64,000 bases of DNA from a bacterium (GTDB lineage: Bacteria; Bacillota_I; Bacilli_A; RF39; UBA660). Shown one piece after another: positions 25,803 through 63,664 of this stretch. The DNA lies in NCBI GenBank assembly GCA_963659735.1, contig CAVKUP010000001.1, positions 1,166 to 65,165 of the forward strand, given 5' to 3'. Both the position numbers and the translations under genes were made by a program. The notes under the pieces are model-generated. The model saw only the letters and a list, made by a program, of their open reading frames with translations, ran no database searches and was not told where the DNA came from. Each line of letters starts with the position of its first letter. Position 1 is the stretch's first letter.

Positions 25803-26279
25803 ATGAGAAAAAATTCTAAAGGTTTTACGTTGGTTGAACTACTAGCTATCATTGTTATCTTAGCTATTATCGCCTTAATCACAACACCAGTTATTTTAAA
25901 TGTAATTGAAAATTCAAAATTAAATGCGGCTAAAGATAAAGCTTGGGGAACAATTGATGCTGTAAGAGTTGCTTATGCAACTGCACAAACAGATGAGCAA
26001 GAAATTAGTCTTCCTTATACTGTTAACTTTAACGGTACTAAGGCAGCATGTACAACTGGTAGTTCATGTGTAGGCTACATTGGTAGTACTGAAGTTAAAG
26101 CTAGTGGAGAAAATGCAACAGATGGTTCTGTAGTAATAGCTGAAGATGGTACAATGACTGCAACTTCATTAAAATTTGGAAATTACTATTGTAGTACAAT
26201 ATCTGGTAAAAAAGGCAAATTAAATGCTAACCAAATGTATTGTTCAAGAACATCAGATGATGTTACTCCAACTGCATAA
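25803..26279 (+). CDS. Type IV pilin/pseudopilin with canonical class III signal (KG|FTLVELL)
   Basis: MRKNSKGFTLVELLAIIVILAIIAL carries the prepilin peptidase motif G|FTL[IV]E. There is a C-terminal Cys pair. Confidence 0.7.
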   Translation: MRKNSKGFTLVELLAIIVILAIIALITTPVILNVIENSKLNAAKDKAWGTIDAVRVAYATAQTDEQEISLPYTVNFNGTKAACTTGSSCVGYIGSTEVKASGENATDGSVVIAEDGTMTATSLKFGNYYCSTISGKKGKLNANQMYCSRTSDDVTPTA

Positions 26280-26367: not shown

Positions 26368-26817
26368 ATGGGTGCGATGAAAGAAGTCAATGAAGATACT
26401 AAAAGAATACAGATGATAGAATACGGACTAATAATATTAATGTTATTTATAATTTTAATAATATTAATGCCACCATTTACTAAAATAGTATCAACTACTA
26501 TGTATAATTCCGCAAAATTAAATACAGAAGGCACTATTTCAACTGTAAAGGATATGTATGCTTCTATTAATTTAAGAGATGATGTGGCTTTACCTTTTAC
26601 TGTTGAATATAAACATGGGAAATATACACTTTATGAAGACGGAAGAAAATATATAATTCCTAATACAGTTAAAATAAAAATTGAAGGAAAGCAAGCATCA
26701 AGTGGTAAAGTAGTAATAAATACAGATGGAGAGATAGAAGTTAAAAATTTAAAATTTGGTTTATATGCATGTAATCAAAAAGCTGGAAAAAACTTAGATT
26801 GCAAATTTTCTTGGTAA
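26368..26817 (+). CDS. Pilin paralogue with altered signal (KR|IQMIEYGLI; Arg at the -1 position)
   Basis: Aligns with the upstream pilin (K-G-F-T-L-V-E versus K-R-I-Q-M-I-E). Shares the C-terminal LKFG.Y.C disulfide-loop motif. Confidence 0.5.
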
Positions 26818-34410: not shown

Positions 34411-35070
34411 ATGAGTTATTCAAAAAAGATCAATGATATTTTAATTAAAGGAAAAAAGTGTAAAGAAAAGTATGGTAATGTTGGACCAACCGGACCGAAA
34501 GGAGATGCGGAAGGTATTAAAATAAGAAAAACAGAAACAATAGAACCTAATGAGGAGGCATCAGTTATAGATACATTAATAAATAAAACGCATATTTTAG
34601 ATTTTAAAATTCCAAAAGGAGATATTGGGCCAACCGGACCGCCTGGACCTTTACCGCGTAGTGTGTTTGGGTACAAATTTAGTGATGCAGGTAATGTCAT
34701 TAATTTAGAAGCAAATAAATTTAAAGAAGTTGAATTAAATCGAAATGGTGAAATAATTGGTATAGCAAATAAAGATAATGCTTTTAATGTAATTGATGAT
34801 GGTATATATAAAATAGAGTATTTTTTTTCAGCATCTTCTTCTATTCAAACCGCATTATTTACAGAGGTATGGTTAAATGGCGAATTTGTTGAAGGATCAG
34901 AAGTAAGCAAAGATGTTATTATAAATGATGATATAGATTTTCATAGTATAGCGGTTACTAGAGCTAAAAAAGGAGATATTATAAATTTAGTTGTTAAAAC
35001 AACAAAGGCATCCGTATTAACAACCGCACCAGATACTAATGCATATTTATTTATTTCAAAACTTGCTTAA
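34411..35070 (+). CDS. Protein with two short collagen-like G-X-Y runs and a C-terminal beta-rich globular domain (BclA/exosporium-like architecture)
   Basis: GPTGPKGDAEG and GDIGPTGPPGPLP triplet repeats, then a ~130-aa domain. Confidence 0.4.
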   Translation: MSYSKKINDILIKGKKCKEKYGNVGPTGPKGDAEGIKIRKTETIEPNEEASVIDTLINKTHILDFKIPKGDIGPTGPPGPLPRSVFGYKFSDAGNVINLEANKFKEVELNRNGEIIGIANKDNAFNVIDDGIYKIEYFFSASSSIQTALFTEVWLNGEFVEGSEVSKDVIINDDIDFHSIAVTRAKKGDIINLVVKTTKASVLTTAPDTNAYLFISKLA

Positions 35071-48250: not shown

Positions 48251-49588
48251 ATGAAAAATTCTCAAAAAAGTTCAAGTAAGAAGAATAAAATATTAGATTT
48301 TATTCAAAATGTAGAGGACCGAGCTAATGATGCTTTAGAAGATAGTTTAATGGATGAAGATGCTAAAAATGATGGTAATGTTGTTTATAATGATATTGTT
48401 AAAAATTCTGTGCAAGCTAGTATGTCAAAATTGCCTTGGCTTATTGCACTATTTCTTATTTTAATAATTTCAATTACATTTGGTGTGATGTTTTTTAAAA
48501 GTAATCCTAAAACGTTATTTACGCAAACTGTTGATGGAATGTTTAGTTATTTAGAAAATAATATTAATGATAATGTTTATGATATAACTGATGGTAATAT
48601 TTATTTTGATTATGATGTTGTCACTAATTTAGAAACAGATGTTTTGAAAAATGAATTTAGTCATGTAAAATGGAATGCTGATTATGTTAAAGATAATTCT
48701 AAGGGTGCCTTTTATTTGGATTTAAAGACTAAATATGATGATTTTGATTTGCTTAAATTAAAGTTATATGGGGATAATTCTGATACTTATATTTATGCAC
48801 CTGATTTGTATGATAAGTATGTAAAGTTTAAAAATAATAAGATAAATTATTTGTTTAATAGTAATGATGCTAAGATAATTCTTGATGGGTTTAATCAAGC
48901 TATTGATAAATTAATTGCTGATGAAAAAATTTATAGTAATAAAGAATTATTAAATGTTAATGATAAGAATTTTAATGCGATTAAAACAAGATTTTTGATT
49001 GATGATAAAAATAGAGATAGGGTCTGTGAATCTTTTATTAATTCGTTAAAGGCTAATGATGAATTTGTAAGTTCTTTTTCAAAATTAAAGGGTGTTAAAA
49101 GTAGTAGTGTAAAGAAGTCGTTGGATAAGTATTTAATTAAGTTAAAACGTAAATTGAAAAAATATGGTAATTTAAATGTTGTGTTGTATACTGATAGTAA
49201 AACTAATGGTTTTCTTAAATTTGTACTTTTTGGTGAAAATGAAATGTTTAGTTTAATTAAGGGAGAAAATGATAAATTTTATTATGAAGTTAATAATGGC
49301 GAAAATAAAATAAATGGTGAATTTTCATTGGAGGTTAACGATAGCAAAACTAAGTATGTTTTTTATTTGATTTATAAGAAGAGTATTAATAATAGTGTTG
49401 TTTTTGAGGATAGATATAATTTGAAGTTTACTTGTAAAAAAGCAAATTATTTTAAAAAAGTTGATACTAGTGATAGTGTTGATGGTAATAAATTAGATGA
49501 TTTAACTAAAGCTCAAATTTATATGAATATTTCATCTAATTCAAATTTAAGTAGGATAATTAGTGAAATTAAATTAGCGCGAAGCTAA
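48251..49588 (+). CDS. Hypothetical single-pass membrane protein with a large extracytoplasmic domain
   Basis: TM helix at about residues 60-85. No family recognised. Confidence 0.4.
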   Translation: MKNSQKSSSKKNKILDFIQNVEDRANDALEDSLMDEDAKNDGNVVYNDIVKNSVQASMSKLPWLIALFLILIISITFGVMFFKSNPKTLFTQTVDGMFSYLENNINDNVYDITDGNIYFDYDVVTNLETDVLKNEFSHVKWNADYVKDNSKGAFYLDLKTKYDDFDLLKLKLYGDNSDTYIYAPDLYDKYVKFKNNKINYLFNSNDAKIILDGFNQAIDKLIADEKIYSNKELLNVNDKNFNAIKTRFLIDDKNRDRVCESFINSLKANDEFVSSFSKLKGVKSSSVKKSLDKYLIKLKRKLKKYGNLNVVLYTDSKTNGFLKFVLFGENEMFSLIKGENDKFYYEVNNGENKINGEFSLEVNDSKTKYVFYLIYKKSINNSVVFEDRYNLKFTCKKANYFKKVDTSDSVDGNKLDDLTKAQIYMNISSNSNLSRIISEIKLARS

Positions 49589-49641
49589 TTTTTTTGCATT
49601 TTTTTTATGTATAAGCATATCTTAAAGTGAGGGGTGATTAT

Positions 49642-50178
49642 GTGGCGGCATATAAAGAAATAGTAACTAAGGCAATTGTTGGTAAAGGGAAAAAACAGTT
49701 TAAAAATAATTATACTTTACAGGTTGAGAATAAACCAACAACTGTTTTAGGGTGCTGGGTTATAAATCATAAATTTAAGGGCTATAAGACAGGAAATAAG
49801 GTTGGGGTTGATGGTTCATTTGATATAAATATATGGTATTCTTATGATGATGATAGTAAAACGGCGGTTATTAATAAAAAAATTGAATATAATGATTTAT
49901 TTAATGTGAAAGTTAGGGAGAATGCTGATATATCAGATAATAATGATATTATTGTTAGAAGTTTAAAGCAACCTACGTGTTATGGTGTTGAAATTTTAAA
50001 TGATAAAACTATATCTTTTAATATTGAAAAGGAACTTGGGGTTGAAATTGTTGGTGAGGCTAAGGTAAAAATTGCTGTTGAAGAAGATGAGGATCCATGG
50101 GATGATATTGTTGATGATGTTGATGAAAGTACTTTAAAAGAGATTGATGAAAATGTATCGGATGATTATTTAAAGTAA
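49642..50178 (+). CDS. cotE: Outer spore coat morphogenetic protein CotE
   Basis: YKEIVTKAIVGKGKKQ, VLGCWVINHKF and DINIWYSY are collinear with B. subtilis CotE (YREIITKAVVAKGRKF; ILGGWIINHKY; DINVWYSY). Acidic C-terminus. Likely GTG start at 49642 after a GAGGGGTG RBS. Confidence 0.75.
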   Translation: MAAYKEIVTKAIVGKGKKQFKNNYTLQVENKPTTVLGCWVINHKFKGYKTGNKVGVDGSFDINIWYSYDDDSKTAVINKKIEYNDLFNVKVRENADISDNNDIIVRSLKQPTCYGVEILNDKTISFNIEKELGVEIVGEAKVKIAVEEDEDPWDDIVDDVDESTLKEIDENVSDDYLK

Positions 50179-50385: not shown

Positions 50386-50946
50386 GTGGATAATAAACAT
50401 AAAAATGCTTTGATTGGTGCGTTACTTGCTGTTGTATTTGTTATGGCAGTTGGTTATGCAGCGTTTGCACAACAATTAACAATTAATGGTAGTGCCACAA
50501 TTACATCAAAATGGGATGTTCATATGACAAATGATGGTGCAACTGCAACTCCAAGTACAATTATGAATACTATGCCATCTGGTACTGTTAGTGTTGCTGA
50601 AGGTGGTTTAAGTGCTGATTTTACTGCAAGTTTAATTTCTCCTGGAGATAAAGTTACATTTGTTGTTCCAATTAAGAATGCTGGTACAATTGATGCTGTT
50701 TTAGATACTATTACTTTATCTAGTACTACTGCAGGAATGGCCATTGATAATACTGGTTTAACTGCTACAACAGCTGATGGTAGTATTAAATATACTGTAA
50801 CTAGTCCAAGCAAAAATACTTTAGCTAATACAACTGGTTCTGATACAATTACTATTGTTGCTGAATACGTTAACCAAGATAACCAAGGTAATGTTCAAAA
50901 TGTTACGGCTCAACTTACAGTAGTAATGAATTATGTTCAAGCATAG
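50386..50946 (+). CDS. Thr-rich secreted or anchored fibre-subunit-like protein with a pilin-derived N-terminal helix lacking G(-1) and E(+5)
   Basis: KN|ALIGALLAVVFVMAV aligns with the pseudogene RG|FALIELLAVIVLSVV. Beta-rich T/S composition. GTG start after an AAAGGGTGA RBS. Confidence 0.5.
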   Translation: MDNKHKNALIGALLAVVFVMAVGYAAFAQQLTINGSATITSKWDVHMTNDGATATPSTIMNTMPSGTVSVAEGGLSADFTASLISPGDKVTFVVPIKNAGTIDAVLDTITLSSTTAGMAIDNTGLTATTADGSIKYTVTSPSKNTLANTTGSDTITIVAEYVNQDNQGNVQNVTAQLTVVMNYVQA

Positions 50947-50988: not shown

Positions 50989-51062
50989 AATTTGTAATTA
51001 TATAATTTTGAGACATTTTTACAAGTTAAACATATTTTATGCTATCCAAAATAACTTTTTCT

Positions 51063-51090
51063 TTGCATTTAAAAAAAAATAAGATATAAT
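51063..51090 (+). promoter_or_regulatory. Candidate sigma-A promoter for the downstream locus
   Basis: TTGCAT at 51063-51068, 16-nt spacer, TATAAT at 51085-51090. Confidence 0.45.
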
Positions 51091-51120: not shown

Positions 51121-52701
51121 ATGATTTTAAGAAAACCTTATGCATTTTTTATAAAGTATTTTAAATTATTTCATGCAATTATTGCTTTATTCATTGGTTT
51201 TTTACTTTATAAAAGCTTTACAGTTTATAATTTTTTCAATGTTTATATTGATGATTATAGTTCAGCGCTTACAAGTTTATCTCCAAGAACAATTATAAAC
51301 ATGTATACCTTTTTAACTATACTAATTGTAATAATTTTGACAATTGTTTTATTATCAGTAATGTTTTATAAAAAAAAGCCTAAATCTTTATACATTTATT
51401 CTTTTATTGCTTATATTGCATTACTAGTTTTATTTGGTATAACTTATCCAATCTTACGTGATATTAGTGGTGCAATATTGGATGTTCGTGTATCTAAAGC
51501 CTTAAGAGATTTTTATATGATGTCTTTAGTTATTCAAGCAATAAGTTTAGTTTTATTTATAGTAAGAGCAACTGGTTTTGACATTAAAAGGTTTGATTTT
51601 GGTACAGATTTGCAACAACTTGATATTAATGAAAAAGATAGTGAAGAAATAGAAGTTGCTTTAGAGTTTGATAAAAATAAAACTCAACGTAAAATTAGAA
51701 GTATATTTAGAAATTTTAAATATGTATATGGTGAAAACAAGTTTATAATCAATACAGTTGGTTTAATATTGATTGTAATATTAGGTTTTAATATTTATGT
51801 TAATATAACAGTTTATAAAGCTAAATATAATCAAGGAACTGCTTTTGAAGCTAGTAATATAACCTTAAATGTAAGAGATTCTTATTTAACAAAGCTTAAT
51901 TCCTCAGGAGAGGCATTAACAAGTGATGAAATACTTGTTTTAAAACTGGACATTAAAAGTCAAATTGATAATAATACATTAAATACGGGTCTTGCTACTG
52001 TATTAATTGAAGGAAAATCATATAGTCAAAATAATGAATATGCGAAAGAATTGACAGACCTTGGTGAAGCTTATACAAATCAAACTTTAGATTCAGAATA
52101 TCATAGTTATATTTTAGCGTTCAATATTCCAGAAAAAGATATTGATAAAAAAATGACATTTAAATTTAATGATGATGTTAGTTACATCAAAGGAGAAATT
52201 GGTGCAAAAAATATTTATGTTAAATTAAATCCAATTAATTTAGATAAAAAAATTAAAACAATAAGCAATAAAATGGGTGAACAGCAAAATTATGACGATA
52301 GTATTTTAGAAAGTGCGGATTTAAAAATAAATAGTTATGAAATAAATAATCAGTTTAAATCTGAATATAAATACTGCTATAGCATTAATAAATGTATAGA
52401 TTCATATGAATACATAACTCCAAGTGCAACTGGAAATTATTTTAAAACTTTAATTAAAATTAATGGAGAATTTAATACTGATAATACACAAATAAATAAT
52501 GTGATAATATTTATGAATACATTTGGGACAATTAATTATAAAATAAATGATACTTGGAAAAGTGAAAAAATAAATTCTTCTTCTTTAAAATCAAACTTTG
52601 ATGGATTTTATTTAGAAGTTCCATATGACATTAAAGATGCTACAGAGGTAAATTTTGTATTTAATATACGTAATTTATCTTATAAATATACTTTAAAGTA
52701 A
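51121..52701 (+). CDS. Polytopic membrane protein (4-5 N-terminal TM helices plus a sixth around residue 210) with a ~300-aa extracytoplasmic C-terminal domain
   Basis: AGAGGGGG RBS. No family recognised. Confidence 0.4.
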   Translation: MILRKPYAFFIKYFKLFHAIIALFIGFLLYKSFTVYNFFNVYIDDYSSALTSLSPRTIINMYTFLTILIVIILTIVLLSVMFYKKKPKSLYIYSFIAYIALLVLFGITYPILRDISGAILDVRVSKALRDFYMMSLVIQAISLVLFIVRATGFDIKRFDFGTDLQQLDINEKDSEEIEVALEFDKNKTQRKIRSIFRNFKYVYGENKFIINTVGLILIVILGFNIYVNITVYKAKYNQGTAFEASNITLNVRDSYLTKLNSSGEALTSDEILVLKLDIKSQIDNNTLNTGLATVLIEGKSYSQNNEYAKELTDLGEAYTNQTLDSEYHSYILAFNIPEKDIDKKMTFKFNDDVSYIKGEIGAKNIYVKLNPINLDKKIKTISNKMGEQQNYDDSILESADLKINSYEINNQFKSEYKYCYSINKCIDSYEYITPSATGNYFKTLIKINGEFNTDNTQINNVIIFMNTFGTINYKINDTWKSEKINSSSLKSNFDGFYLEVPYDIKDATEVNFVFNIRNLSYKYTLK

Positions 52702-52739
52702 ATTAATTATATGCTATAATATGTTAGGAGGATAGGAAA

Positions 52740-53363
52740 GTGAAACAAGTTAAATATTTGATTTTTACCTTGATATGCACATTCGTATTTCCAATGATTT
52801 CTCATGGAGAATGTAATTATCAAAGACAAGCGGAACTTTCAAGAATTGCTAGTAATGTTAAAATAAATTATAACTATACGGTAAGTGATACAAGTAATCT
52901 ACAATTTGTCATAAACATTACTAATTTAACTGATGATATTTATTTGTTACAAGATGGTTTAAATATTATATCTGGCACTGGAGAAAAACAAATAAGTGTG
53001 GATTATGGTAACTCTGTTAAATATGACATTTATTCTAATGATTCTTCTTGTAAAGGTGAATACTTACTTACAAAATATATTACTATACCTACCGTTAATT
53101 CATTTGCGGATACTAATTTATGTAAAACTAATCCAAATTTCAAATATTGTCAAAGATGGGGAAGTTATTCTATTAGTTATGATGAATTATTAAATCAATT
53201 TAATTTATATAAAAAAAAATCAGAAAAAAAGAGTGATAGTAAAAATGACACATTTCAAATTTTAATTGATTATTTTAATAATAATAAATTTATGCTTGCG
53301 TTTTTTGGAATAGTTATTGTTTGTACAATCATTTATTATATATTTAACAAGAAAAAGATGTGA
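52740..53363 (+). CDS. Cys-containing secreted protein with signal peptide and C-terminal TM anchor
   Basis: GTG start after an AGGAGG RBS. Signal peptide ...PMISHG|E. C-terminal FMLAFFGIVIVCTIIYYIF TM helix. Confidence 0.4.
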   Translation: MKQVKYLIFTLICTFVFPMISHGECNYQRQAELSRIASNVKINYNYTVSDTSNLQFVINITNLTDDIYLLQDGLNIISGTGEKQISVDYGNSVKYDIYSNDSSCKGEYLLTKYITIPTVNSFADTNLCKTNPNFKYCQRWGSYSISYDELLNQFNLYKKKSEKKSDSKNDTFQILIDYFNNNKFMLAFFGIVIVCTIIYYIFNKKKM

Positions 53364-53371
53364 GGGATATT

Positions 53372-56185
53372 ATGAAAAAATTAAAAAAAATATTTGCTTT
53401 TATAATTATAAGCTTATCTATTTTTCCTGTGCTTGTGTTTGCTGTAGAAAGTGGGGGTACTGGTGAGAGTGGAGGTCAATCAAATACTGGTTATGGTGGC
53501 CAAGCTGCTTGTGGATATTTTAGTAATTTTGATCCCCCTATTAATTTCGCTAACACGGGAGCTGGATATAAAACATTTTCTGCATATAAGTTTGATCTAG
53601 TTTATAAAACTAAAAATGGCAAACGTGAAATTTTAAAAACTGTAGTTACATATGATGATTATTCATGGGCTACTCGAGGCTATTATTATACTAGAGTTGG
53701 ACCATCTATTGATAGATATGTTGCAGCCCTTAAATCGGTTTATGGTAGTGGTAATGTAATATATAAAACATCTGGTGGGGATAATACGCTTTTTGGTTTG
53801 GCTCGCAAACTTTCAAAGGGCGATACAATTGATAGGCTTTTTAACAATAATAAGTTAACAGAATATAATCTAATAAAAAATTATATAACAAGTACTGATG
53901 GTTTTGGCGTTTCTGCAAAAGATTTACAACGTCCTCAGGATACTAACCCCGGCAACTTTGATTCTTATGGTTACAGAATACTTATTCAAAAAATACAACT
54001 TTATGATACTTGTGATGAGGCTGCTACTTTTGACGCAGGTTATGGCACTAAGGGAGATGCTGCTTTGTCGGCACCAAGAAAAGAAGCTGCAAATGCAGAT
54101 TCCGCACTTATGAAAAATTTAAAAAATAGTATCGGTTGGGCAACGGCTAATTATCAAGTTGAAATGTCATCTGTAGTTCATGTTGGTAGTACTGAACTAT
54201 GGACAACAAAAGATGATATTGGTATTAGTAAAGCAAACAATAACGATGTAAATACACTTAAAGGTACAAATTATAATTGTAGTGCTGGTGACAGTGCTTG
54301 TATGAGAAGATGGGGAGTGGCAATTAGAAATTTGAGAAGTACATTTGCTGATGAAAATAACGGCTTAGGCTATAATATTTTGTGGTTTGCGACTGATGCC
54401 TTCGCTAGCGATTATTCAATTGATGCGGCATGTGTTAATTGTAATAGTAAAATTTCTGATAATAAATCTTATTTTATTCAAGATACGACTAATTGGACAG
54501 CCATAAAAAATAGTAAAGGATATTTAGAAGGTAGTAGTGAAGATTATGCAAAGAATGTACAAAAATATTTTTACAAAAAGGAAAATGGTTTTCCAGATAC
54601 ATACTGTAGAGAAGAATATACAGTTAAGTTTCCAAATGCTAATAATACGATTCAAGTCGCAACTGGTAGATATTTTTTGTTAAATGCATCTGATGAAGAT
54701 GAAAAAAAATACTCTGCAATCCCTAATTTTAAACCAATTTCAGTTACAAAAACGAGAATTTGTAAAGGTGGTAACTTAGAAAAATTCAAAAATGCATCTG
54801 AAGGCAGTTTCAAAAATACTGGAAAAGTTTATTTTAAATACATAGAAAATTATAATGGTAGTAAGTATACAATGAGCCAAAAACAAGAACTAAAAGCTAA
54901 TAGTGACTCTAAGGTCACGTCAACTATTAATGGTGATACACTTACAATGTCTATTACAAAAACATACACTTTACCTACTGACTTTTATAGATATGTAAGA
55001 AAAAAAGATGGCCTATCTGTTAAACAAATAACAAATGACCAAAAAGATAGTGGTGAATATGAGGATATAGGAATTTCTAATTTACCCGTTTCATTTAATA
55101 ATTATAGTTCTTATGCTGGAGATGTTAAATTGTCTTATGAATTACCATCTCATAATGAAGATCCATATACATATATAAAAGCTGCTTATGAAGCAGGTAA
55201 TGGTGCTAATAATTATTTTAAATCTAAGAACAATGAATTTAATAATATTTATAAAAAGTATTCTAATAATCAAACAATGACTGATGAAGAAAAAAGCGAT
55301 TTAACTCAAAGTGCTTGTGCGAAAATGTATGGTTATGGGACAAGTGGATTTAATGAATGTGCTAAAAAAAGGCAGACAAACAAAATAGGTGATACTGATT
55401 CAAATTGTTATACTATTAATAAACAAATTGATTCAAATCAATCAACTAGTGGATATTCTTGTATAGTTAGTAGTCCTAACAAATGCCGTTATGACAAGAG
55501 TACAGGAAAGTTTTATAACAGTGCTGGTAAAGAAATATCTGAAACTGATTATAACAGTGGTAAATGTGATTCTGATGATGGCGGAACTGATGGCGGTGGA
55601 ACGTGTAAAATAGTTTATAATCATAAAACTGATTCAACTGATTATTATGGACCTAATGGTGAAAAAGTAAGTAAAGATGAATATAATAAACTTTGTCCAT
55701 GTCCAAGCTCTTGCGAATATGGATGCTGTCCATCTGGAGAATGTGCTCCTATGCCAAGAAAGAATGGTATGATTGTCTGCCCTATAGGTGGCAAAAGAGT
55801 TATTTATAGAACAATTGATTTAATACAGCCATTTCCAGGTCAAAGTTCAACAAATAGAGCAACCGGAAGTAACTGGTGTTCATATGACATTAAAACGCAA
55901 AAGATAAATTGTAAATGGAATAACAATGTTTCTAAAACTTACATTTTAAATGAAGGTAAAACAATACATAGTGACAACCATGTTTTGTATCAAGTAACTT
56001 TAGATTCTAAAACTATTAGTAATGTAAGGAACTATAACAAAAAAAATAAATATGATGATTTCACTTTAAAATGTAAAAATAATGGTAAAGCTTGTATCAG
56101 TACATTCTTAAAAGAGGTAGTATCTACAACAGGGAAATGTGCAAATAAAAGTACTGCAAGTCAATTTAACAGTTGTAATAGTTAG
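53372..56185 (+). CDS. Large (about 937 aa) Cys-rich secreted protein with Gly-rich N-terminus. Candidate pilus-associated adhesin or substrate.
   Basis: Signal peptide MKKLKKIFAFIIISLSIFPVLVFA. About 40 Cys, concentrated in the C-terminal half (CPCPSSCEYGCCPSGECAP). No sortase motif. Confidence 0.5.
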   Translation: MKKLKKIFAFIIISLSIFPVLVFAVESGGTGESGGQSNTGYGGQAACGYFSNFDPPINFANTGAGYKTFSAYKFDLVYKTKNGKREILKTVVTYDDYSWATRGYYYTRVGPSIDRYVAALKSVYGSGNVIYKTSGGDNTLFGLARKLSKGDTIDRLFNNNKLTEYNLIKNYITSTDGFGVSAKDLQRPQDTNPGNFDSYGYRILIQKIQLYDTCDEAATFDAGYGTKGDAALSAPRKEAANADSALMKNLKNSIGWATANYQVEMSSVVHVGSTELWTTKDDIGISKANNNDVNTLKGTNYNCSAGDSACMRRWGVAIRNLRSTFADENNGLGYNILWFATDAFASDYSIDAACVNCNSKISDNKSYFIQDTTNWTAIKNSKGYLEGSSEDYAKNVQKYFYKKENGFPDTYCREEYTVKFPNANNTIQVATGRYFLLNASDEDEKKYSAIPNFKPISVTKTRICKGGNLEKFKNASEGSFKNTGKVYFKYIENYNGSKYTMSQKQELKANSDSKVTSTINGDTLTMSITKTYTLPTDFYRYVRKKDGLSVKQITNDQKDSGEYEDIGISNLPVSFNNYSSYAGDVKLSYELPSHNEDPYTYIKAAYEAGNGANNYFKSKNNEFNNIYKKYSNNQTMTDEEKSDLTQSACAKMYGYGTSGFNECAKKRQTNKIGDTDSNCYTINKQIDSNQSTSGYSCIVSSPNKCRYDKSTGKFYNSAGKEISETDYNSGKCDSDDGGTDGGGTCKIVYNHKTDSTDYYGPNGEKVSKDEYNKLCPCPSSCEYGCCPSGECAPMPRKNGMIVCPIGGKRVIYRTIDLIQPFPGQSSTNRATGSNWCSYDIKTQKINCKWNNNVSKTYILNEGKTIHSDNHVLYQVTLDSKTISNVRNYNKKNKYDDFTLKCKNNGKACISTFLKEVVSTTGKCANKSTASQFNSCNS

Positions 56186-56195
56186 GAGGTAAAAC

Positions 56196-56597
56196 ATGAA
56201 AGAGTCATTTTGGGGTATATTTGTTGTGTTTCTAGGTATTACGTCAATATTTTTCATAGTTTTATTTCAAAACTTAACTAATACTGATGAACACAACTCA
56301 CAACTTTTAAAAGAAGTTACAGAAGCTGCAATGTGGGATGCATTTGATTATTCTGCATATAGAACTAATGGAACAGTAAGAATAAACAGAGAAAAGTTTG
56401 TAGAAAACTTCGTTAGAAGATATGCAGAAAGTGCAAGTAAATCAAGACAATATGAAATAAAATTTTACGATGTAAATGAACAACCGCCTAAGGTTAGTTT
56501 AAGCGTTACCAGTGGAGTTGTTGGTGTTAATGGTAGCACTGAAGTTACATTTAATTTAAAAAATAGTATTGATGCTATTTTAGAAACACCATATTAA
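56196..56597 (+). CDS. Pseudopilin-like protein with short leader MKESFWG|hydrophobic
   Basis: AGGAGG RBS. N-terminal TM helix directly after a 7-aa leader ending in Gly. Confidence 0.45.
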   Translation: MKESFWGIFVVFLGITSIFFIVLFQNLTNTDEHNSQLLKEVTEAAMWDAFDYSAYRTNGTVRINREKFVENFVRRYAESASKSRQYEIKFYDVNEQPPKVSLSVTSGVVGVNGSTEVTFNLKNSIDAILETPY

Positions 56598-56617: not shown

Positions 56618-57676
56618 ATGGATAATTTAGCAATGACATTTAAAAGATTTTTAAAAAATAAAAATGTAGTTACTATTATTGGGGTAGTAATAATACTAAT
56701 TTTACTTTATGTAGGCTATAGTACTCAAATCAACAAAGCTGTTGAACCAGTTGAGATCCCTGTGGCTACTCAAACTATTCAGCCAAGAACTGAAATTACT
56801 GATGACATGGTTAAGCTTATTGATATGCCAAATGTATCGTTAAGTGATAATGTTATTAGATCTAAAGCACAAATTGTAGGAAAATATTCCAATGTTAATT
56901 CAGTAATACCTGAGGGAAGTATGTTTTATACTGATACGGTAATTAGTAAAGATGAACTTCCAGATGCGGCATTTACTAAAGTTAAATCTGGAGAAGTAGT
57001 TTATAATTTCCCAGTTGATATGGAAAGCACTTATGGAAATTCAATTTTCCCTGGAAATAAAATTGACATCTACATGAAAGTTGGAGATGGAACAGATGAA
57101 AAAATTATGCTTGGTAAATTAATAGAAAATGTAGAAGTACTTGCTGTAAAAGATTCTTCAGGTAAGGCAGTATTTGAAAACACAAGTGAAGAAAGAACAC
57201 CAGCAATGCTTATATTTGGATTAAAAAGTAAACTTTATACTTTACTAAAAAAAGCATCATACATGGATAGTTTAGGTGTAGAATTGTATCCAGTACCACA
57301 CGGAAGTAAAGTTGATACAACGGGAACAACTGAAGCATCTACACAAGAATTAGTAGATTATATTGAGGCTCATTCAATTAGCTTAGCTGAAACTGAAAGT
57401 ACAAATACAACGGATGAATTATTACCTACAGTAAAAGAAACAGGAGGAACTCCAAATACTGTAACAATCACATTCCCTAGTGGATGTAATAAAACATATA
57501 CATGTTCATATATAAAAGATAATGGTAAAACAGTTAAAGTAACTAAAACAACTCAAGATTTAATTTATACAACTAATGGTACATTAATTGCTACAGTAAC
57601 AGAGAAAGATGGTACAACTCATGTTTTAACAACTAATATTCCACTTACTAATTCAACTACTACAACAGGACAATAG
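56618..57676 (+). CDS. cpaB: CpaB/RcpC-like Flp pilus assembly protein (SAF domain)
   Basis: N-terminal TM helix, then a SAF-type segment QPRTEITDDMVKLIDMPNVSL...IVGKYSNVNSVIPEGSMFYTDTVISKDE. Thr-rich C-terminus. Confidence 0.65.
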   Translation: MDNLAMTFKRFLKNKNVVTIIGVVIILILLYVGYSTQINKAVEPVEIPVATQTIQPRTEITDDMVKLIDMPNVSLSDNVIRSKAQIVGKYSNVNSVIPEGSMFYTDTVISKDELPDAAFTKVKSGEVVYNFPVDMESTYGNSIFPGNKIDIYMKVGDGTDEKIMLGKLIENVEVLAVKDSSGKAVFENTSEERTPAMLIFGLKSKLYTLLKKASYMDSLGVELYPVPHGSKVDTTGTTEASTQELVDYIEAHSISLAETESTNTTDELLPTVKETGGTPNTVTITFPSGCNKTYTCSYIKDNGKTVKVTKTTQDLIYTTNGTLIATVTEKDGTTHVLTTNIPLTNSTTTTGQ

Positions 57677-57678
57677 TT

Positions 57679-59145
57679 ATGAATAATGTTTTTGACCAAA
57701 TAGATTTTGGGGCACTAAAACCTTATTTGGAAGATGATGATATAACTGATATTTCTTATGATAATGGTGGACAAATACATTTAAAAACCTTATCTAAAGG
57801 AATATTTAGAATAGAAAATCCAGCAATTAATAATGCATTTATGGAAAAGCTAGCGTTTCAATGTTCAAATGTTATGGGAAAAACTTTTAACATGGCGCAT
57901 CCATTTCTGGATGCTGAAAGTGCAGAGTTACGTTTAGCTTTTATCCATGAATCAGTTTCATCAAATGGGATAGCTTGTGTTTTACGTAAAACACCAGCTA
58001 AAATACGTTTGCAAAAAGAAAAAATAGTTGCTGACAGATATGTTGAATTAGATATAATTGATTTTTTAGAACAATGTGTTTTAGGCCACTGTAATATTAT
58101 TGTATGTGGTGAAACAGGTTCTGGTAAAACGGAACTTGTAAAATATTTGGCTAGTAAGATAGCTGAAAATGAAAAAATTATTACAATTGAAGATACATTG
58201 GAATTACATTTGGATAAAATTTTTCCACATCGTGATGTAGTTTCACTTAAAACTAATAACATCGCATCTTATACTGATATTTTGGAAGCATGTATGAGAC
58301 AAAATCCTAAATGGATTTTACTATCAGAGGTTCGTAGTGCTGAAGCTGTATTAGCTGTTCGTAACTCTATATCATCTGGTCACTATATTTTATCAACAAT
58401 ACATGCTGATAAGGCTGTTTCCATTCCAAACCGTATGTACAGTTTATTAGAAACAAATCAAGATTTAGATCAATTTATGAGTTCTATTTGTAGATATGTT
58501 CAAATTGGAATATATGTTAGAGGTTATCAAGATAAAGCTACTAAACGTTTTAAAAGGGAAATTGCTGAAGTTACAGAATTTTATGTAACAAGTGATACTA
58601 ATGAAGCAAAACATAATATCATTTATAGAAAAGGTGCTGACGGTAAAGTTATTAGAAATAATCCAAGCCCATATTTAATAGATTACCTAGAAGTTCAGGG
58701 AGTATTCTTACCTAAAGAATTACAAAATATGGCTGGTGATACGTATGTTACTAATGATTCAATGAAAAATAGTATTGAAGGTAATTCTGAAAATATTGAT
58801 AAAACATTTGAAGGTAATGAAAATAATTCAATTGATACTTATTTAAAAACTTCTACAAATGCTGTGCAAATAAATGAAATTAATTCAAATATTTCTACAG
58901 AAAATACATCAAGTATTTTTCAAAATGAAGTTAGTTTAAATAGTTCTGCAGATAATGTTATGTCAAATGTTTCTGTGAACAGTCAATCAAATGATTCCAT
59001 AAACATTGATAATAGTTTTAGTTCAAACATTCCTGTAGAAAATCATATACATGATATTTCTATGAATGAAAATGCAAACAATTCTGTGAATAATTTTGTA
59101 CATGATACTTCAAGTATAAATAATACAGAAAATTTATTTGAATAG
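57679..59145 (+). CDS. tadA: CpaF/TadA-family type II/IV secretion ATPase with an unusual about 130-aa Asn/Ser-rich C-terminal tail
   Basis: Walker A CGETGSGKTE, Walker B WILLSEVR, His-box region. VirB11/TadA-type N-domain. Confidence 0.85.
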   Translation: MNNVFDQIDFGALKPYLEDDDITDISYDNGGQIHLKTLSKGIFRIENPAINNAFMEKLAFQCSNVMGKTFNMAHPFLDAESAELRLAFIHESVSSNGIACVLRKTPAKIRLQKEKIVADRYVELDIIDFLEQCVLGHCNIIVCGETGSGKTELVKYLASKIAENEKIITIEDTLELHLDKIFPHRDVVSLKTNNIASYTDILEACMRQNPKWILLSEVRSAEAVLAVRNSISSGHYILSTIHADKAVSIPNRMYSLLETNQDLDQFMSSICRYVQIGIYVRGYQDKATKRFKREIAEVTEFYVTSDTNEAKHNIIYRKGADGKVIRNNPSPYLIDYLEVQGVFLPKELQNMAGDTYVTNDSMKNSIEGNSENIDKTFEGNENNSIDTYLKTSTNAVQINEINSNISTENTSSIFQNEVSLNSSADNVMSNVSVNSQSNDSINIDNSFSSNIPVENHIHDISMNENANNSVNNFVHDTSSINNTENLFE

Positions 59146-59155
59146 GAGGAGCAAT

Positions 59156-60061
59156 ATGACATTTTTAATATTTTTAATAGTTTTAATAATAGCTATATTT
59201 ATTGTACTATATCGAAATAATAGTAATTCTAATAATGTTTACAAGTTTCTTAATAAACAAGTTGGTGTAATTTACGATAAGTACGCTCCTTATTCATTTA
59301 AAGTGGTTAGGGAAAAAGTTAAGGAATTAGGTCAAGAATATACTCCCAGACAGTATACAATTCAAATAATTGTATTTGCAGTAGGAGCAGCAGTTGTTAC
59401 ATATTTATATTTTTATAATATTGTTATTTCTTTAGTATATGCTGTAATTGCTGTATCTATTATTCCTTATTTAACTTATTTAAGATGTAAAAGATTATAT
59501 AGTGAATTTATATTTGAACAAATTCAAGTATATACAACTAATACAATTATGGAATTTGCTACTACTCAGTCTTTTGTTAAAGCATTGGAAGGTGTATATG
59601 CCTCAGATGTTTTAGAAGATCCGGTTAAAGCAGATGTTAAAATGATGATTGACATGGCTTATGAAAATGGTACTATTGATCAATCTTTAAATTATATGAA
59701 TAGTAAATATGATTATTATATTGTAAGAAATATGCATCAATTATTCTTACAAATTACTAATGAAGGTTCAAGAGATGCAGGTGAATCTTTAGAAAACATG
59801 AGTCAAGATATTGATATGCTTGTAGAAGGAGTTTATAGAGATAGAATTGATAGAGCAGCTTTCCATAAAAAATTCTTACAATTTGGTATTATTTTATACT
59901 TAATGGTTATGCTTGTTCAATTTATGTTAGGCTTAGAAACATATAATGAAATGTTAGAAAGCTGGTGGGTAAAATTACTTTTACACGGTATTATATGGCT
60001 TAATACGTATTTCATTTTATCAGGTGAAAAATATTATAATGAAGATGTGGGGGCGGAATAA
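59156..60061 (+). CDS. TadB-like polytopic membrane platform protein (T2SS-F type)
   Basis: AGGAGGAG RBS before the ATG at 59156. TM helices flank a central cytoplasmic domain. Position directly after tadA. Confidence 0.55.
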   Translation: MTFLIFLIVLIIAIFIVLYRNNSNSNNVYKFLNKQVGVIYDKYAPYSFKVVREKVKELGQEYTPRQYTIQIIVFAVGAAVVTYLYFYNIVISLVYAVIAVSIIPYLTYLRCKRLYSEFIFEQIQVYTTNTIMEFATTQSFVKALEGVYASDVLEDPVKADVKMMIDMAYENGTIDQSLNYMNSKYDYYIVRNMHQLFLQITNEGSRDAGESLENMSQDIDMLVEGVYRDRIDRAAFHKKFLQFGIILYLMVMLVQFMLGLETYNEMLESWWVKLLLHGIIWLNTYFILSGEKYYNEDVGAE

Positions 60062-60855
60062 TGAGTATAGGATTAACATTTATAATAATTGCAATTATTC
60101 TTATATTTTTACTTGAATATAATAATCATTTTAGCTCAAACAAATTCATAAGAGAAACAGAGCCTTACTTTAGAACTTTAATGGAAGATGACTATGATTT
60201 TCTACTTAAAGTAAGATATGGTGGCGACGTTGATGTTAATAAAATGTATGGGCTTAGAGTACGTAATGGAATTGTTACTATAATTTTTTGTTTATTTATA
60301 TTTATGTCTAAATTAACTTTTGCTTATATATTACTTTCATTACTACTGGGTTTTGGAATGTTTAAGTTATCATATATGCAATTGAATAGTTATTATAAGC
60401 AAAATTTACATAAAATTAATTTAATGTTACCTTACTATTTAAAGGGACTAGAAATTTTAGTTCAGCACTACACAGTTCCAGTCGCACTTTCCAGATCAAT
60501 AGAAACAGCACCTGAAATTTTTAAATCTGGTTTAAGAAAATTGGTTGCTAAAATTGATGCTGGTGATGCTTCTGTTCAACCGTATATGGACTTTGCTCAT
60601 GAATATCCAGTTAGAGATTCTATGAGAATGATGAGGCTTCTTTATAGATTGGGTTTAGGTAGTCAAGAAAACAAACAAGAACAGTTATTAATGTTTTCAA
60701 GAACCATTTCAACTTTACAAAATAAGGCACGTGAACAAAAGTATAAAGAACGTTTAGAAAAAATGGAAAATAAAACAATGATTATGCTATTTGGTACTGG
60801 TGGAGGTATCTTAGGATTCTTACTTTTAGCTATGATGATGATGATGAACTTTTAG
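60061..60855 (+). CDS. TadC-like polytopic membrane platform protein
   Basis: Translationally coupled. Topology similar to the preceding ORF. Confidence 0.55.
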   Translation: MSIGLTFIIIAIILIFLLEYNNHFSSNKFIRETEPYFRTLMEDDYDFLLKVRYGGDVDVNKMYGLRVRNGIVTIIFCLFIFMSKLTFAYILLSLLLGFGMFKLSYMQLNSYYKQNLHKINLMLPYYLKGLEILVQHYTVPVALSRSIETAPEIFKSGLRKLVAKIDAGDASVQPYMDFAHEYPVRDSMRMMRLLYRLGLGSQENKQEQLLMFSRTISTLQNKAREQKYKERLEKMENKTMIMLFGTGGGILGFLLLAMMMMMNF

Positions 60856-60938: not shown

Positions 60939-61175
60939 ATGAAGGAAGCTGCTGGTGAAGCAAACTTAACAGTTGTTGCTATTATTTTAATTGGTGTTGT
61001 TGTTGCAGTGGTTACTCCACTTGTTTCTAATTTAATGAGCTCTACAGCAAAAAAAGCTTGTTGTACAGATGCTGGAGGTGTTTGGAAAGGTGGCTCTTGC
61101 CAAGCAGGAAGTAGTTCCTACAGTGCACAAGATTATAATACTTGTGTTAATAATTCTACTAAAAATGCTAAATAA
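60939..61175 (+). CDS. Small Flp-sized pilin-like protein, leader MKEAAG|EANLTVVAIILIGVV, Cys-rich C-terminus
   Basis: 78 aa. AGGAGGTG RBS. TM helix, then KKACCTDAGG...GSCQAG...CVNN. Followed by a terminator. Confidence 0.5.
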   Translation: MKEAAGEANLTVVAIILIGVVVAVVTPLVSNLMSSTAKKACCTDAGGVWKGGSCQAGSSSYSAQDYNTCVNNSTKNAK

Positions 61176-61178: not shown

Positions 61179-61202
61179 GCTTGCTTAAAAGCAAGTTTTT
61201 CT
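61179..61202 (+). terminator. Terminator/attenuator after the small pilin-like gene
   Basis: cttgc-ttaaaa-gcaag plus T5. Confidence 0.6.
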
Positions 61203-61224: not shown

Positions 61225-61722
61225 ATGCGTGAAAGTATAGGAAGTACATTTTTATATAATATAATCATACTATTTGTAATAATTGTTATTGGTTTACTTT
61301 CAGCTACTATAAGTTATTATAAAGCATTTAAAGTTAATGAAAGATTACTTTATTCTATAGATAAATTTGAAGGGTATAATAAATCTTCAAAAAATGAAAT
61401 GGAACAGTATTTGTCATCTGTTGGATATTCATATGAAGAAACTGGTCAAAAAGAGTGTGCAAAAAGTAAAAACGGTGGCACTTTAATTATGTCAACGACT
61501 TCAAAATATTTATATTGTGTTTATTATCACAAAGATGATAGAGGACTAAAGGAAGAAAATATAATCAATGGTGATGAGGAACCAATATATTATAATTATA
61601 GTATTACAAGTTATATATATGTTGATTTGCCTATTGCTGGTAAATTTAAAGTTCCTGTTTATACTAAAGGAGAGAGAATATATAATTTCTCAGATCATCA
61701 AAGTCAGGGGGATAAGATATGA
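61225..61722 (+). CDS. TadE-like minor pilin/pseudopilin paralogue 1 (leader MRESIG|STFLY...)
   Basis: N-terminal TM helix. Shares YKAFKV, YCVY and D[LV]PI[AV]G[KD]F motifs with the next ORF. Confidence 0.45.
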   Translation: MRESIGSTFLYNIIILFVIIVIGLLSATISYYKAFKVNERLLYSIDKFEGYNKSSKNEMEQYLSSVGYSYEETGQKECAKSKNGGTLIMSTTSKYLYCVYYHKDDRGLKEENIINGDEEPIYYNYSITSYIYVDLPIAGKFKVPVYTKGERIYNFSDHQSQGDKI

Positions 61723-62207
61723 AAGAAGCGATTGCTAATGCTGGGGTATTTAATCTTGTAATTATATTTGTAATTATTTTACTAGCATTCTTTGTTGGTT
61801 CGCTTTCTTATTCTAAGGCTTTTAAAGTAAAAAATAAGATTGTTGAAGAAATTGAAAAAGATCAAGAATATGTAGTAACAGGAAAAAATTCTACCGAAGT
61901 AAGAGTAGAACAATGGTTAAAAAATATTGGATATAGAGTAAATACTACTAATCAGTCAAATGCAGCTTTATGTGACAGTAAAGTTAGTGGAAATGGTGGT
62001 TCTGCTGGAGTTTTAGTTAACAAAAATAGCAATTATCAATACTGTGTATATGAATTCAATACATGTGAACAAAATTCTGATAAATCAAAATGTGGTAAAT
62101 ATTATAAAGTAATTGCTTATATGTATTTTGATGTTCCAATTGTTGGAGATTTTTTAAAGATTCCTATTAAAGGGGAAACAATGATATTTAATGAAGTCCA
62201 TAGTTAG
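61719..62207 (+). CDS. TadE-like minor pilin/pseudopilin paralogue 2 (leader MKEAIANAG|VFNLV...)
   Basis: Paralogue of the 61225 ORF, with an overlapping start/stop. Confidence 0.45.
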   Translation: MKEAIANAGVFNLVIIFVIILLAFFVGSLSYSKAFKVKNKIVEEIEKDQEYVVTGKNSTEVRVEQWLKNIGYRVNTTNQSNAALCDSKVSGNGGSAGVLVNKNSNYQYCVYEFNTCEQNSDKSKCGKYYKVIAYMYFDVPIVGDFLKIPIKGETMIFNEVHS

Positions 62208-62219: not shown

Positions 62220-63227
62220 ATGAATGTAATAATTGTAAATAAATATCGTGATGCACTTGTCAATTTAGATATTGATATTATAAAAAAATTAGATGGTGAA
62301 TTTACTGTAGAAGAAATTGTCAAAACATTTCAATCATTTTATTTTAATAAGATGATTTTAGATATTACAGCTTTAAAGAATTATAAAAATATTAAAACAT
62401 TACAAGAACTTTCTTTATCCTTAGATATGGATAAATTAATTTTACTTTTAGATGGTTCTGCTGAAACATCTAATCCTGAATATTTGTCAGACTTAATATC
62501 TATGAGAATTTATAATTTTACAATGAATGTTGAGGGCGTTAAATGGCTATATGAACACCCTAATAGTTACCGTGACGTCGCACAATATCATCAATTGGAT
62601 ACGACACACGAAACAACTTATTCACAACCTGCAACGAATGTTACATACACTGAAATTAGAAAGACATCTATTATATCATTTAAAGATGTAACTTCGGGAG
62701 CAGGGGCAACGACTCTTACATATATTGCAAAAAAACAGCTTGCTAAAAATTATAATGTTGTTGCTATTGAGGTAGATAAACATGACTTTATGTATTATGA
62801 TGAAGATAAAATGTTTAGTGTTTCAAATAATGAATTAGGTAACACCATTTCAAAATACAATGGAATGGATGTTATATTAATTGATGCTAATAAAAGTACA
62901 GCGGCTGAAGGATTGGCTACCGAAAATATTTATCTAATAGAGCCATCAAAAATAAAATTAAATAAATTATTAGCTCGTGATTCTAAAGCGTTTGAAAAAT
63001 GTAAAAATAAAAAAATAGTTTTAAATCAGTGCATGTTGGATGAAAAAGATGTGTCTGATTTTGAAATGGAACTTGGTCTCGATGTTTTTTATAAAATGCC
63101 ACCTTTAAATGACCAAAGTGATGAAAATAAAGCATTAAATAATTTTTTAGTAAAGCTTGGGTTTTATAAACAGGGTAATGTTGATAGTGTTGGAGATAAA
63201 AAGGGTATTATGGGTTTATTTAAATAA
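62220..63227 (+). CDS. TadZ/CpaE-like protein: N-terminal receiver-like domain plus a ParA/MinD-fold domain with degenerate Walker A (TSGAGATT)
   Basis: IISFKDVTSGAGATTLTYIAK aligns with the MinD IVVTSGKGGVGKTT box, but both Lys are lost. Confidence 0.55.
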   Translation: MNVIIVNKYRDALVNLDIDIIKKLDGEFTVEEIVKTFQSFYFNKMILDITALKNYKNIKTLQELSLSLDMDKLILLLDGSAETSNPEYLSDLISMRIYNFTMNVEGVKWLYEHPNSYRDVAQYHQLDTTHETTYSQPATNVTYTEIRKTSIISFKDVTSGAGATTLTYIAKKQLAKNYNVVAIEVDKHDFMYYDEDKMFSVSNNELGNTISKYNGMDVILIDANKSTAAEGLATENIYLIEPSKIKLNKLLARDSKAFEKCKNKKIVLNQCMLDEKDVSDFEMELGLDVFYKMPPLNDQSDENKALNNFLVKLGFYKQGNVDSVGDKKGIMGLFK

Positions 63228-63313: not shown

Positions 63314-63664
63314 ATGAATTTATTTAATACATTAGCGTACTGTGATAGTGTAATTACTGGAGGAATTCCTGATGGAATTGGTAACATTGTTCATTTAGTT
63401 GTTAGAGCTATTCAAGTTGCTGTTCCAATTTTATTAATTATATGGGGAATGCTTGATTTTGCTAAAGCTATTATTGGACAAAAAGAAGATGATATTAAAG
63501 CTGGACAAAAAATCTTTGTCAAAAGGTTAATTGCTGCTGTTGTAGTATTCCTAGTAGTTACTATTGTTCAACTTGTTATCAATTTAGCTGCTAGTATTGG
63601 TGGAACTAGTAATGAAGCGTCAACTGCATGGGATTGTGCAAGTGAATTAATAAATGGTAAATAA
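63314..63664 (+). CDS. Small two-TM membrane protein, paralogue A
   Basis: AGAGGAGG RBS. ...VPILLIIWGMLDFAKAI... hydrophobic hairpin. Confidence 0.35.
   Translation: MNLFNTLAYCDSVITGGIPDGIGNIVHLVVRAIQVAVPILLIIWGMLDFAKAIIGQKEDDIKAGQKIFVKRLIAAVVVFLVVTIVQLVINLAASIGGTSNEASTAWDCASELINGK

Follow-up and report, generated by a model that had tools for sequence, protein, structure and literature searches.

Results

Three envelope genes are kept together with a Tad-like locus

We analysed a 64,000-nucleotide stretch of contig CAVKUP010000001.1 (assembly GCA_963659735.1, positions 1,166 to 65,165 of the forward strand), here called the window. It carries three consecutive genes for envelope proteins, here named A, B and C, directly upstream of a group of Tad-like genes. 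As the initial annotation had described, the three open reading frames (ORFs) are co-oriented on the forward strand (Table 1). They are real genes and not chance ORFs, with tens to hundreds of full-length homologue clusters each, and a frame of 937 codons such as C would not arise by chance in DNA of 27% guanine-cytosine (GC) content. A, B and C are conserved protein families that were previously undescribed, and they are dedicated, co-inherited parts of a filament locus of divergent Tad/archaeal type that RF39-type gut Bacilli carry.

The alignment of C homologues was scanned against genomes and gave 33 loci. Genes for DUF5411, CpaB and the ATPase lay downstream of C in 27 of the 28 loci with sufficient downstream sequence, and A and B lay upstream in 27 of the 28 with sufficient upstream sequence. 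The expected co-occurrence with the ATPase locus was thus near-perfect, which indicates that A, B and C are dedicated to it. The sole exception was a stand-alone second B-C pair. Such a pair is found in the metagenome-assembled genome (MAG) UMGS841 (L024), among nucleoside-metabolism genes and without A or the core; L032 is probably a further example. Another locus (L036) has two C paralogues which are 44% identical.

The gene order A-B-C-DUF5411-CpaB-ATPase-membrane-membrane-pilin-165-162-335-116 (numbers are protein lengths in the window) is kept in about 30 species. Synteny held down to 28-33% identity, and three distant C homologues (1053-1342 aa, 28-35% identical) have the same A-B-C-DUF5411-RcpC context. 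A profile search found 1406 relatives of C among 1.84 billion representatives; many of them share only the C-terminal 250-600 profile positions and differ in their N-terminal parts.

The genes of the locus evolve at very different rates. Median identity to the window proteins was 89% and 87% for the 301-aa and 264-aa platform-like proteins, 86% for the ATPase, 82% for DUF5411 and 76% for the CpaB-like protein, and in the envelope trio the medians dropped to 54% (A), 41% (B) and 37% (C). No other gene of the locus evolves as fast as B and C. Such a gradient is typical of an inside-to-outside arrangement, in which cytoplasmic and membrane parts would be nearly frozen and the large exposed parts would change fastest.

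Almost all of the 33 loci come from uncultured gut Bacilli. The sources include complete MAG chromosomes of 1.3-1.5 Mb, Candidatus Coprosoma, Firmicutes CAG:822 and the 'uncultured Tenericutes' UMGS841. Coprosoma corresponds to the GTDB genus CAG-822 in the order RF39 (PMC8035907). Four contigs (L002, L011, L018 and L027) belong to MAGs labelled Sphaerochaetaceae, Oscillospiraceae and Muribaculaceae, and these labels probably reflect binning contamination.

A, B and C belong to no described family

Searches of Pfam, NCBIfam and PHROGs gave no usable match for A, B or C, and their profiles did not match any PDB sequence. Scans with hidden Markov models (HMMs) and motifs found no hydrolase, vWA, lectin, propeller or peptidase A24 features in the three proteins, and no cell-wall hydrolase domain (NlpC/P60, amidase, lysozyme-like, LytM) was matched by Pfam, NCBIfam, PHROGs or fold. 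None of the homologues carries a Pfam domain or a useful name, and literature searches on DUF5411, RF39/RFN20 pili and monoderm Tad systems brought up no description of A, B or C. The earlier statement that none of the three resembles a Tad component was borne out, with no HMM or fold match to such components. They were not placed in any well-known unrelated family either, and their reading as parts of a Tad-like system was not refuted in this way. None has a class III pilin signal: B and C carry Sec-type signals and A is polytopic.

Protein A joins a membrane domain to two beta-sandwich ectodomains

Hydropathy and the AlphaFold model (mean predicted local distance difference test, pLDDT, 81.4) agree on the layout of A. 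A bundle of four transmembrane (TM) helices (about residues 16-155) is followed by a conserved acidic cytoplasmic loop (156-205), poorly ordered in the model at residues 168-186, then by TM5 (206-232) and two beta-sandwich ectodomains (233-370 and 379-524). The TM bundle at the N-terminus, one more TM helix and the outer domain of the initial annotation were recovered, the last of these with a length of about 295 aa; that annotation counted a sixth TM helix, and there are five (4+1). From the positive-inside rule and an invariant extracellular Cys419/Cys425 pair it follows that the protein begins in the cytoplasm and that its C-terminal domains are extracellular.

The cytoplasmic N-terminus MILRKPYAFFIKYFK is nearly invariant. 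Conservation reaches 95% in the first 15 residues, 73% in the cytoplasmic loop and about 62% in the remainder. Since the most conserved stretches of A are cytoplasmic, a cytoplasmic partner is suggested.

Structural model comparison showed that the ectodomains have the MPT63/YjhA-like immunoglobulin-like (Ig-like) beta-sandwich fold. There was no Pfam match for A at E ≤ 0.1 and hence none to DUF4352. In contrast to MPT63, YjhA and YcdA (DUF4352-type) of Gram-positive surface proteins and lipoproteins, the sandwiches of A are fused to a five-TM membrane domain. We also considered A as the missing prepilin peptidase and rejected this, as there was no A24 match, the conserved Asp is predicted to be extracellular and the GXGD motif is absent.

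Protein B is a small membrane-anchored protein

The signal peptide, Cys residues and C-terminal TM anchor that had been assigned to B were all recovered, and the anchor is followed by a basic tail. The signal peptide site reads HG/EC in the window protein and HA/EC in the homologue consensus. In the ectodomain of about 155 aa, C25, C104, C128, C137 and W140 are invariant in the homologue alignment. B had no family match in Pfam, NCBIfam or PHROGs and no PDB sequence match; its sole HMM hit, Vhr1 (17 bits, below cut-off), was dismissed.

Protein C is a Cys-rich exported protein with a variable N-terminal part

Protein C has the predicted signal peptide (cleavage between VFA and VE), the Gly-rich mature N-terminus and, at residues 775-793, the cluster CPCPSSCEYGCCPSGECAP. 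The count of about 40 Cys given in the initial annotation was too high: there are 28, which corresponds to 3.0% of residues, compared with 1.0% elsewhere in the window. Across 40 homologues, 24 of these 28 positions are conserved in 82% or more of the sequences.

The Gly-rich linker is followed by a variable region (about 40-320), a conserved mixed alpha/beta core (321-700) and a Cys-rich C-terminal region with 20 Cys in residues 649-935 and the motif VIYRTIDLxxPFPG. In the 40-homologue alignment the conservation score was 0.22-0.27 at residues 241-320. Residues 321-937, which hold nearly all conserved Cys, mostly scored about 0.5-0.7, with two stretches within 681-760 below 0.4.

A regular-expression scan of A, B and C detected no LPXTG motif, and C has neither a TM anchor nor a pilin-type N-terminus; it ends with SQFNSCNS and without a hydrophobic segment. 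Foldseek found no match for C in the PDB at E ≤ 0.001. Two assignments of C were rejected: that of a sortase-anchored LPXTG protein, because motif and hydrophobic segment were not found, and that of a pilin-like TadG, because C has a classical Sec-type signal peptide and no pilin-type N-terminus.

The locus is compatible with a single transcript

The spacers are 38 nt between A and B, 8 nt between B and C and 10 nt between C and the DUF5411 gene, each with a ribosome-binding site. A sigma-70-like promoter candidate lies upstream of A, and upstream of this candidate the gene preceding A is followed by a weak hairpin with a T-run. No terminator-like site was found on the forward strand between 51121 and 61179. 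Spacing and terminator scan together fit a single transcript that would start from the promoter-like site. Inside the operon, a terminator-like hairpin immediately follows the 78-aa pilin gene, as would be expected if more transcript were made of the major pilin than of the genes downstream.

The start of C had been proposed to overlap the stop of B (ATGTGA) and to be translationally coupled to it. In this string ATG is the last Met codon of B and TGA its stop (53358-53363), and the ATG of C at 53372 lies beyond the 8-nt spacer with a GAGGG ribosome-binding site before it. Overlap with B exists only for an alternative GTG start of C at 53360. For the ATG start, coupling by overlap is therefore wrong, and B and C are tightly spaced, not overlapping.

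We consider A the first gene of the unit because the neighbours upstream are not conserved. The upstream set of the window recurs only in an 11-kb metagenomic contig (L001) which is identical to the window, has the same gene calls and encodes identical proteins. In L005, a glycosyltransferase and a DNA glycosylase stand upstream of A in place of the genes of the window.

The downstream genes resemble a Tad system

The DUF5411 assignment is clear (Table 1), and other parts of the downstream region matched more weakly. The CpaB-like protein matched RcpC just below the cut-off (28.7 bits vs 28.8), together with SAF (Pfam) and TIGR03177 (E 1e-10, 41 bits vs a cut-off of 71); its orthologue in L037 does match RcpC. 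The solved structures nearest to the ATPase are FlaI, Archaeoglobus GspE and CpaF, and the NCBIfam subfamily models (VirB11, TrbB, TadA-type, FlaI) all scored far below their cut-offs. Its tail (about 345-488) is Asn/Ser-rich and of low complexity; total length varies from 388 to 559 aa among orthologues, and the catalytic part is 76-97% identical.

The 301-aa membrane protein is extremely conserved (85% mean column identity in the alignment), and its profile found nothing among PDB sequences. The idea that it and the 264-aa protein are TadB/TadC paralogues was compared by hhalign of the two profiles, which gave a weak result (E 0.003, probability 10%). What had been called a Tad-like core therefore holds for the T2SSE ATPase, DUF5411 and the borderline RcpC/CpaB matches, and does not extend by HMM match to the TadB/C and TadZ equivalents. 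'Tad-like' is a fair label for the locus, although it appears to have diverged very far from other members of the type IV filaments of the Tad/archaeal branch.

The DUF5411, 78-aa, 165-aa and 162-aa proteins share a short leader that ends in Gly and precedes a hydrophobic helix, and the leaders are invariant across species. In the 78-aa pilin candidate the leader MKEAAG is followed by EANLTVVAIILIGV. No pilin-like N-terminus contains the Flp 'EY' or the classical 'GFTLxE' motif; that of the 78-aa protein reads MKEAAG/EANLTVV. The 165-aa and 162-aa pseudopilin-like proteins had no family match. No peptidase A24 match was obtained among window ORFs of at least about 110 aa (Pfam), and the genome outside the window could hold a prepilin peptidase.

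The number of conserved Cys is even in every Cys-containing extracytoplasmic product, namely A, B, C, the CpaB-like protein, the pilin and both pseudopilin-like proteins; DUF5411 has none. These even counts imply disulfides or metal sites outside the cell. Exported proteins of Firmicutes do not usually have such Cys or a high Cys content. The window ORFs scanned included no Dsb- or VKOR-like gene.

At the operon end, related loci have 2-4 paralogous two-TM proteins (L005, 19634-22065; L037, 13623-15574), some with Cys-rich N-terminal extensions. These paralogues show faint matches to T4SS_pilin (PF18895) and to the pilin-like conjugal transfer proteins Mbov_0395/0396 of the Mycoplasma integrative and conjugative element, among them the NF045848/NF045889/NF045849 hits of the L005 paralogue (NCBIfam). 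T4SS_pilin-like two-TM proteins are an odd companion for a Tad-like ATPase.

Table 1. Features of the A-B-C locus and further features of the window (positions in the window)
Feature	Position	Strand	Length	Remarks
Classical type IV pilin gene	25803-26279	+		far from the Tad-like locus; MRKNSKG/FTLVELLAIIVILAII; Pfam N_methyl, E 8e-8
Small pilin-like ORF	26368-26817	+		adjoins the classical pilin gene
BclA_C-like gene	34411-35070			below cut-off
ORF between MiaB and CotE	48251-49588	+	445 aa	no Pfam or NCBIfam match
CotE	49627-50178			Pfam scan; just upstream of the Tad-like locus
ORF between cotE and A	50386-50946	+	186 aa	see text
Promoter candidate	51062-51090	+		sigma-70-like, TTTGCA-17-TATAAT; upstream of A; consensus scan, pattern match only
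A	51121-52701	+	526 aa	polytopic, two ectodomains
B	52740-53363	+	207 aa	type I membrane protein
C	53372-56185	+	937 aa	Sec signal, Cys-rich
DUF5411 protein	56196-56597	+	133 aa	Pfam PF17424, E 5.6e-54; pilin-like N-terminus, MKESFWG/hydrophobic helix
CpaB/RcpC-like protein	56618-57676	+	352 aa	N-terminal TM helix, conserved C-terminal Cys pair
Secretion ATPase	57679-59145	+	488 aa	T2SSE family; Pfam T2SSE, E 3e-28
Polytopic membrane protein	59156-60061	+	301 aa	platform-like (TadB-like) by position and topology only
Polytopic membrane protein	60061-60855	+	264 aa	platform-like (TadC-like) by position only
Pilin candidate	60939-61175	+	78 aa	Flp-sized; invariant N-terminus, 4 conserved Cys
Terminator-like hairpin	61179-61196	+		inside the operon
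Pseudopilin-like protein	61225-61722	+	165 aa	MRESIG/hydrophobic helix; conserved Cys pairs
Pseudopilin-like protein	61719-62207	+	162 aa	MKEAIANAG/hydrophobic helix; conserved Cys pairs
Cytoplasmic protein	62220-63227	+	335 aa	TadZ-like by position and degenerate P-loop-like SGAGATT only
Two-TM protein	63314-63664	+	116 aa	operon end

The locus lies in a chromosomal housekeeping region

GC content in the window is about 27%, the GC skew is strongly positive, and almost every gene is on the forward strand. The surroundings of A-B-C are mostly housekeeping genes, which identifies the window as chromosome and not plasmid or phage: NusA, IF2, IF3, L20, trigger factor, the Leu-, Tyr- and Val-tRNA synthetases, LepA, ThyA, DHFR, FtsW/RodA, GyrB, GyrA, RNase J, MiaB and CotE. 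FtsW/RodA and a family-4 glycosyltransferase represent wall synthesis. A tblastn search with protein C found no match in plasmid and phage collections; with this result and the housekeeping surroundings, a mobile-element or phage origin of the locus was rejected.

Genes of spore-coat or exosporium type occur in this lineage, with CotE and a BclA_C-like gene in the window (Table 1) and a BclA_C gene in L037 (263-739), which suggests that the RF39-type lineage forms spores. A spore-surface gene stands immediately upstream of the Tad-like locus twice, CotE in the window and the BclA_C protein in L037. This adjacency is probably coincidental, since the upstream neighbours differ elsewhere.

The 186-aa protein between cotE and A has an N-terminal hydrophobic segment with VGYAAFAQQLTINGSATI and a SPGDKVTFVVPIKNAGTIDAVL motif. 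We take it to recall the TasA/camelysin-type SipW-dependent fibre proteins, with no HMM in support. It was seen only in L001 and is not upstream of A in other species. The classical type IV pilin gene makes it probable that the genome encodes, elsewhere, a second filament system and a prepilin peptidase of the PilD/ComC type.

Discussion

We propose, with a probability of about 0.45, that the A, B and C proteins serve as envelope subunits, specific to this lineage, of a divergent filament machine of the Tad/archaeal type in which C is the distal, adhesin-like component. Inheritance of the machine would be vertical, in uncultured gut Bacilli that are monoderm and have small genomes (RF39/CAG-822, 'Candidatus Coprosoma' and relatives). 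A would be a transmembrane scaffold that links a cytoplasmic partner to the wall zone, with a role comparable to that of PilN/PilO or CpaB alignment proteins. Its N-terminus and acidic loop may contact the ATPase or the 335-aa protein, and its two Ig-like ectodomains may reach into the wall zone. The nearly invariant cytoplasmic N-terminus favours this scaffold role.

B would be the membrane-anchored partner of C, which holds or docks C after export. C itself would be a Sec-exported, surface-exposed distal component stabilised by about 12 conserved Cys pairs, either as disulfides or as metal sites. Its conserved C-terminal half may be the docking side, which B and/or DUF5411 and other minor pilins would connect to the machine or pilus, and its fast-evolving N-terminal part would face outward as an adhesin and bind a ligand. 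C would thus work in the way of the PilY1/PilC tip adhesins known from type IVa pili, with a fold unrelated to theirs. The pairing of an anchor or partner (B) with an exposed adhesin-like protein (C) is favoured by their rates, the fastest in the locus, by the variable N-terminus and conserved C-terminus of C, by the C paralogues and by the lone B-C pair.

Several observations weigh against this proposal. The Cys-rich C-terminal part of C is its most conserved region and has a low-confidence model (pLDDT 34-60), and the docking role given to it is a guess. The stand-alone B-C pairs could equally reflect B and C acting without the machine. Neither the 301-aa nor the 264-aa membrane protein has a Pfam or NCBIfam match, so no T2SSF domain was recognised, and the 335-aa protein and its profile match nothing in Pfam, NCBIfam or the PDB sequences, which leaves its identity as TadZ unsupported. 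Filament formation itself is something we infer, because the locus has no recognisable prepilin peptidase and its pilin-like proteins have no Flp or GFTLxE motifs.

The conservation of C from residue 321 to its end and its 24 conserved Cys suggest a rigid extracellular structure. C held by B might be a structural part of the machine in the wall zone and not an adhesin, as a disulfide-rich collar or conduit through the peptidoglycan or a surface layer, with A as the membrane base, in the function that the secretin and alignment complex have in diderm Tad systems. The extracellular domains on both A and the CpaB-like protein, the wall-synthesis genes in the window and the strict one-to-one synteny with the core would agree with such a structure. 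We nevertheless consider it unlikely, since B and C evolve far faster than the core (37-41% vs 76-89% identity), the N-terminal third of C is highly variable and no oligomeric ring-forming fold was recognised. Moreover, C paralogues and stand-alone B-C cassettes are patterns typical of exposed ligand-binding proteins and not of stoichiometric conduit subunits. Those extra copies also resemble alternative substrates, as would be expected if C were cargo or an effector that a short pseudopilus releases after Sec export and handover from B, in a type II secretion-like device of a monoderm. C carries a Sec signal peptide and is anchored neither covalently nor by a TM helix, B could be a membrane-bound holding partner, and the DUF5411/CpaF operon of Clostridia was classed as 'secretion-related' (Miller et al. 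2022, PMC9523054). However, monoderms lack an outer membrane, so that export by Sec suffices without another translocation step. Domains of toxins, enzymes or effectors were not found in C, and the hairpin after the 78-aa pilin gene is as expected of an abundant filament subunit. This explanation is improbable, and among the roles offered in the initial annotation (tip adhesin, anchoring complex or secreted cargo) secreted cargo is the least favoured, given that C has its own Sec signal and there is no second membrane to cross.

It is very improbable that A, B and C merely share the operon and have a filament-independent function at the surface layer, the spore surface or the wall. The B-C pair without the core (L024), the spore-surface genes just upstream in two lineages and the lack of a pilin-type N-terminus in A, B and C would speak for it. 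Against it, order and tight spacing are kept where C is only 28-35% identical and where upstream neighbours are not conserved, and the most conserved parts of A are cytoplasmic, which argues for an intracellular partner. The rate pattern, the paralogues, the Sec signal of C in a monoderm and the strict synteny make all these alternatives less likely, and we retain the reading of A, B and C as envelope subunits of the filament machine.

A bolder version, which we hold to be rather unlikely, is that the locus represents a distinct, undescribed class of type IV filaments of RF39-type Bacilli. Its A-B-C module would have no Tad, Com, type IVa/b or archaeal counterpart, and C would be a disulfide- or metal-stabilised tip adhesin for attachment to host cells or partner microbes. 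If this were true, C would be a key lifestyle determinant of metabolically dependent bacteria, and it could be used to culture or target them.

RF39/CAG-822-type Bacilli are widespread, uncultured, small-genome gut bacteria of humans, poultry, ruminants and other animals. The housekeeping position of the locus on the chromosome and a core that is 76-89% identical across species suggest an important function. As the only large extracellular parts, with no described family, A, B and C are the evident candidates for the parts with which the machine would bind its target. How type IV filaments of monoderms cross the wall, are anchored and carry adhesins is poorly understood, and A, B and C would extend the known range of accessory proteins of type IV filaments in single-membrane bacteria. 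The Cys-rich exported proteins would also imply an extracytoplasmic oxidative-folding or metal-loading route in the RF39-type lineage.

Comparison with known systems

PilY1/PilC are tip-associated adhesins of type IVa pili in Pseudomonas, Neisseria and Myxococcus. C resembles them in logic only: it is a non-pilin of about 100 kDa with a Sec signal, encoded beside minor-pilin-like genes, with a variable N-terminal and a conserved C-terminal part and with paralogous copies. It differs in that there is no sequence or fold similarity, no Pfam match and no C-terminal beta-propeller, and unlike PilY1 it is Cys-rich and paired with a dedicated single-pass membrane protein, B.

In the literature searched, the sole mention of DUF5411 was a predicted 'membrane machinery' operon with DUF5411 and CpaF in Roseburia, Ruminococcus and Eubacterium (Clostridia; Miller et al. 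2022, PMC9523054). As in our locus, a DUF5411 protein and a CpaF-type ATPase stand there among mostly unannotated Firmicutes genes that are predicted to be secretion- or pilus-related. The operon belongs to a different class (Clostridia), includes only one PilC-like platform, of 434 aa, together with an internalin-like protein of 478 aa, and its gene list holds no equivalent of the 526-aa A, the 207-aa B or the Cys-rich C of about 900 aa. The tad locus of Bulleidia, a reduced-genome member of the Bacillota (PMC12786226), has a different, more canonical composition.

As Tad/Flp (type IVc) comparators we used Caulobacter Cpa, Aggregatibacter Tad and the Tad system of the monoderm Bifidobacterium breve. 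Shared with these are a T2SSE ATPase nearest to CpaF, FlaI and archaeal GspE, a borderline CpaB/RcpC-like protein, two separate polytopic membrane genes after the ATPase, a cytoplasmic gene in the TadZ position, and a small Flp-sized pilin with larger pseudopilin-like proteins that have short leaders ending in Gly. In contrast to them, the locus has no TadV peptidase, its pilin lacks the Flp G/XXXXEY motif, and its platform-like and TadZ-like proteins match no T2SSF, ParA or TadZ model. Secretin and pilotin genes are absent, which is in keeping with a monoderm. To the described Tad systems the locus adds A, B, C, DUF5411 and the two-TM T4SS_pilin-like proteins. The type IV filament machine is of an already known kind, and the envelope module A-B-C is new.

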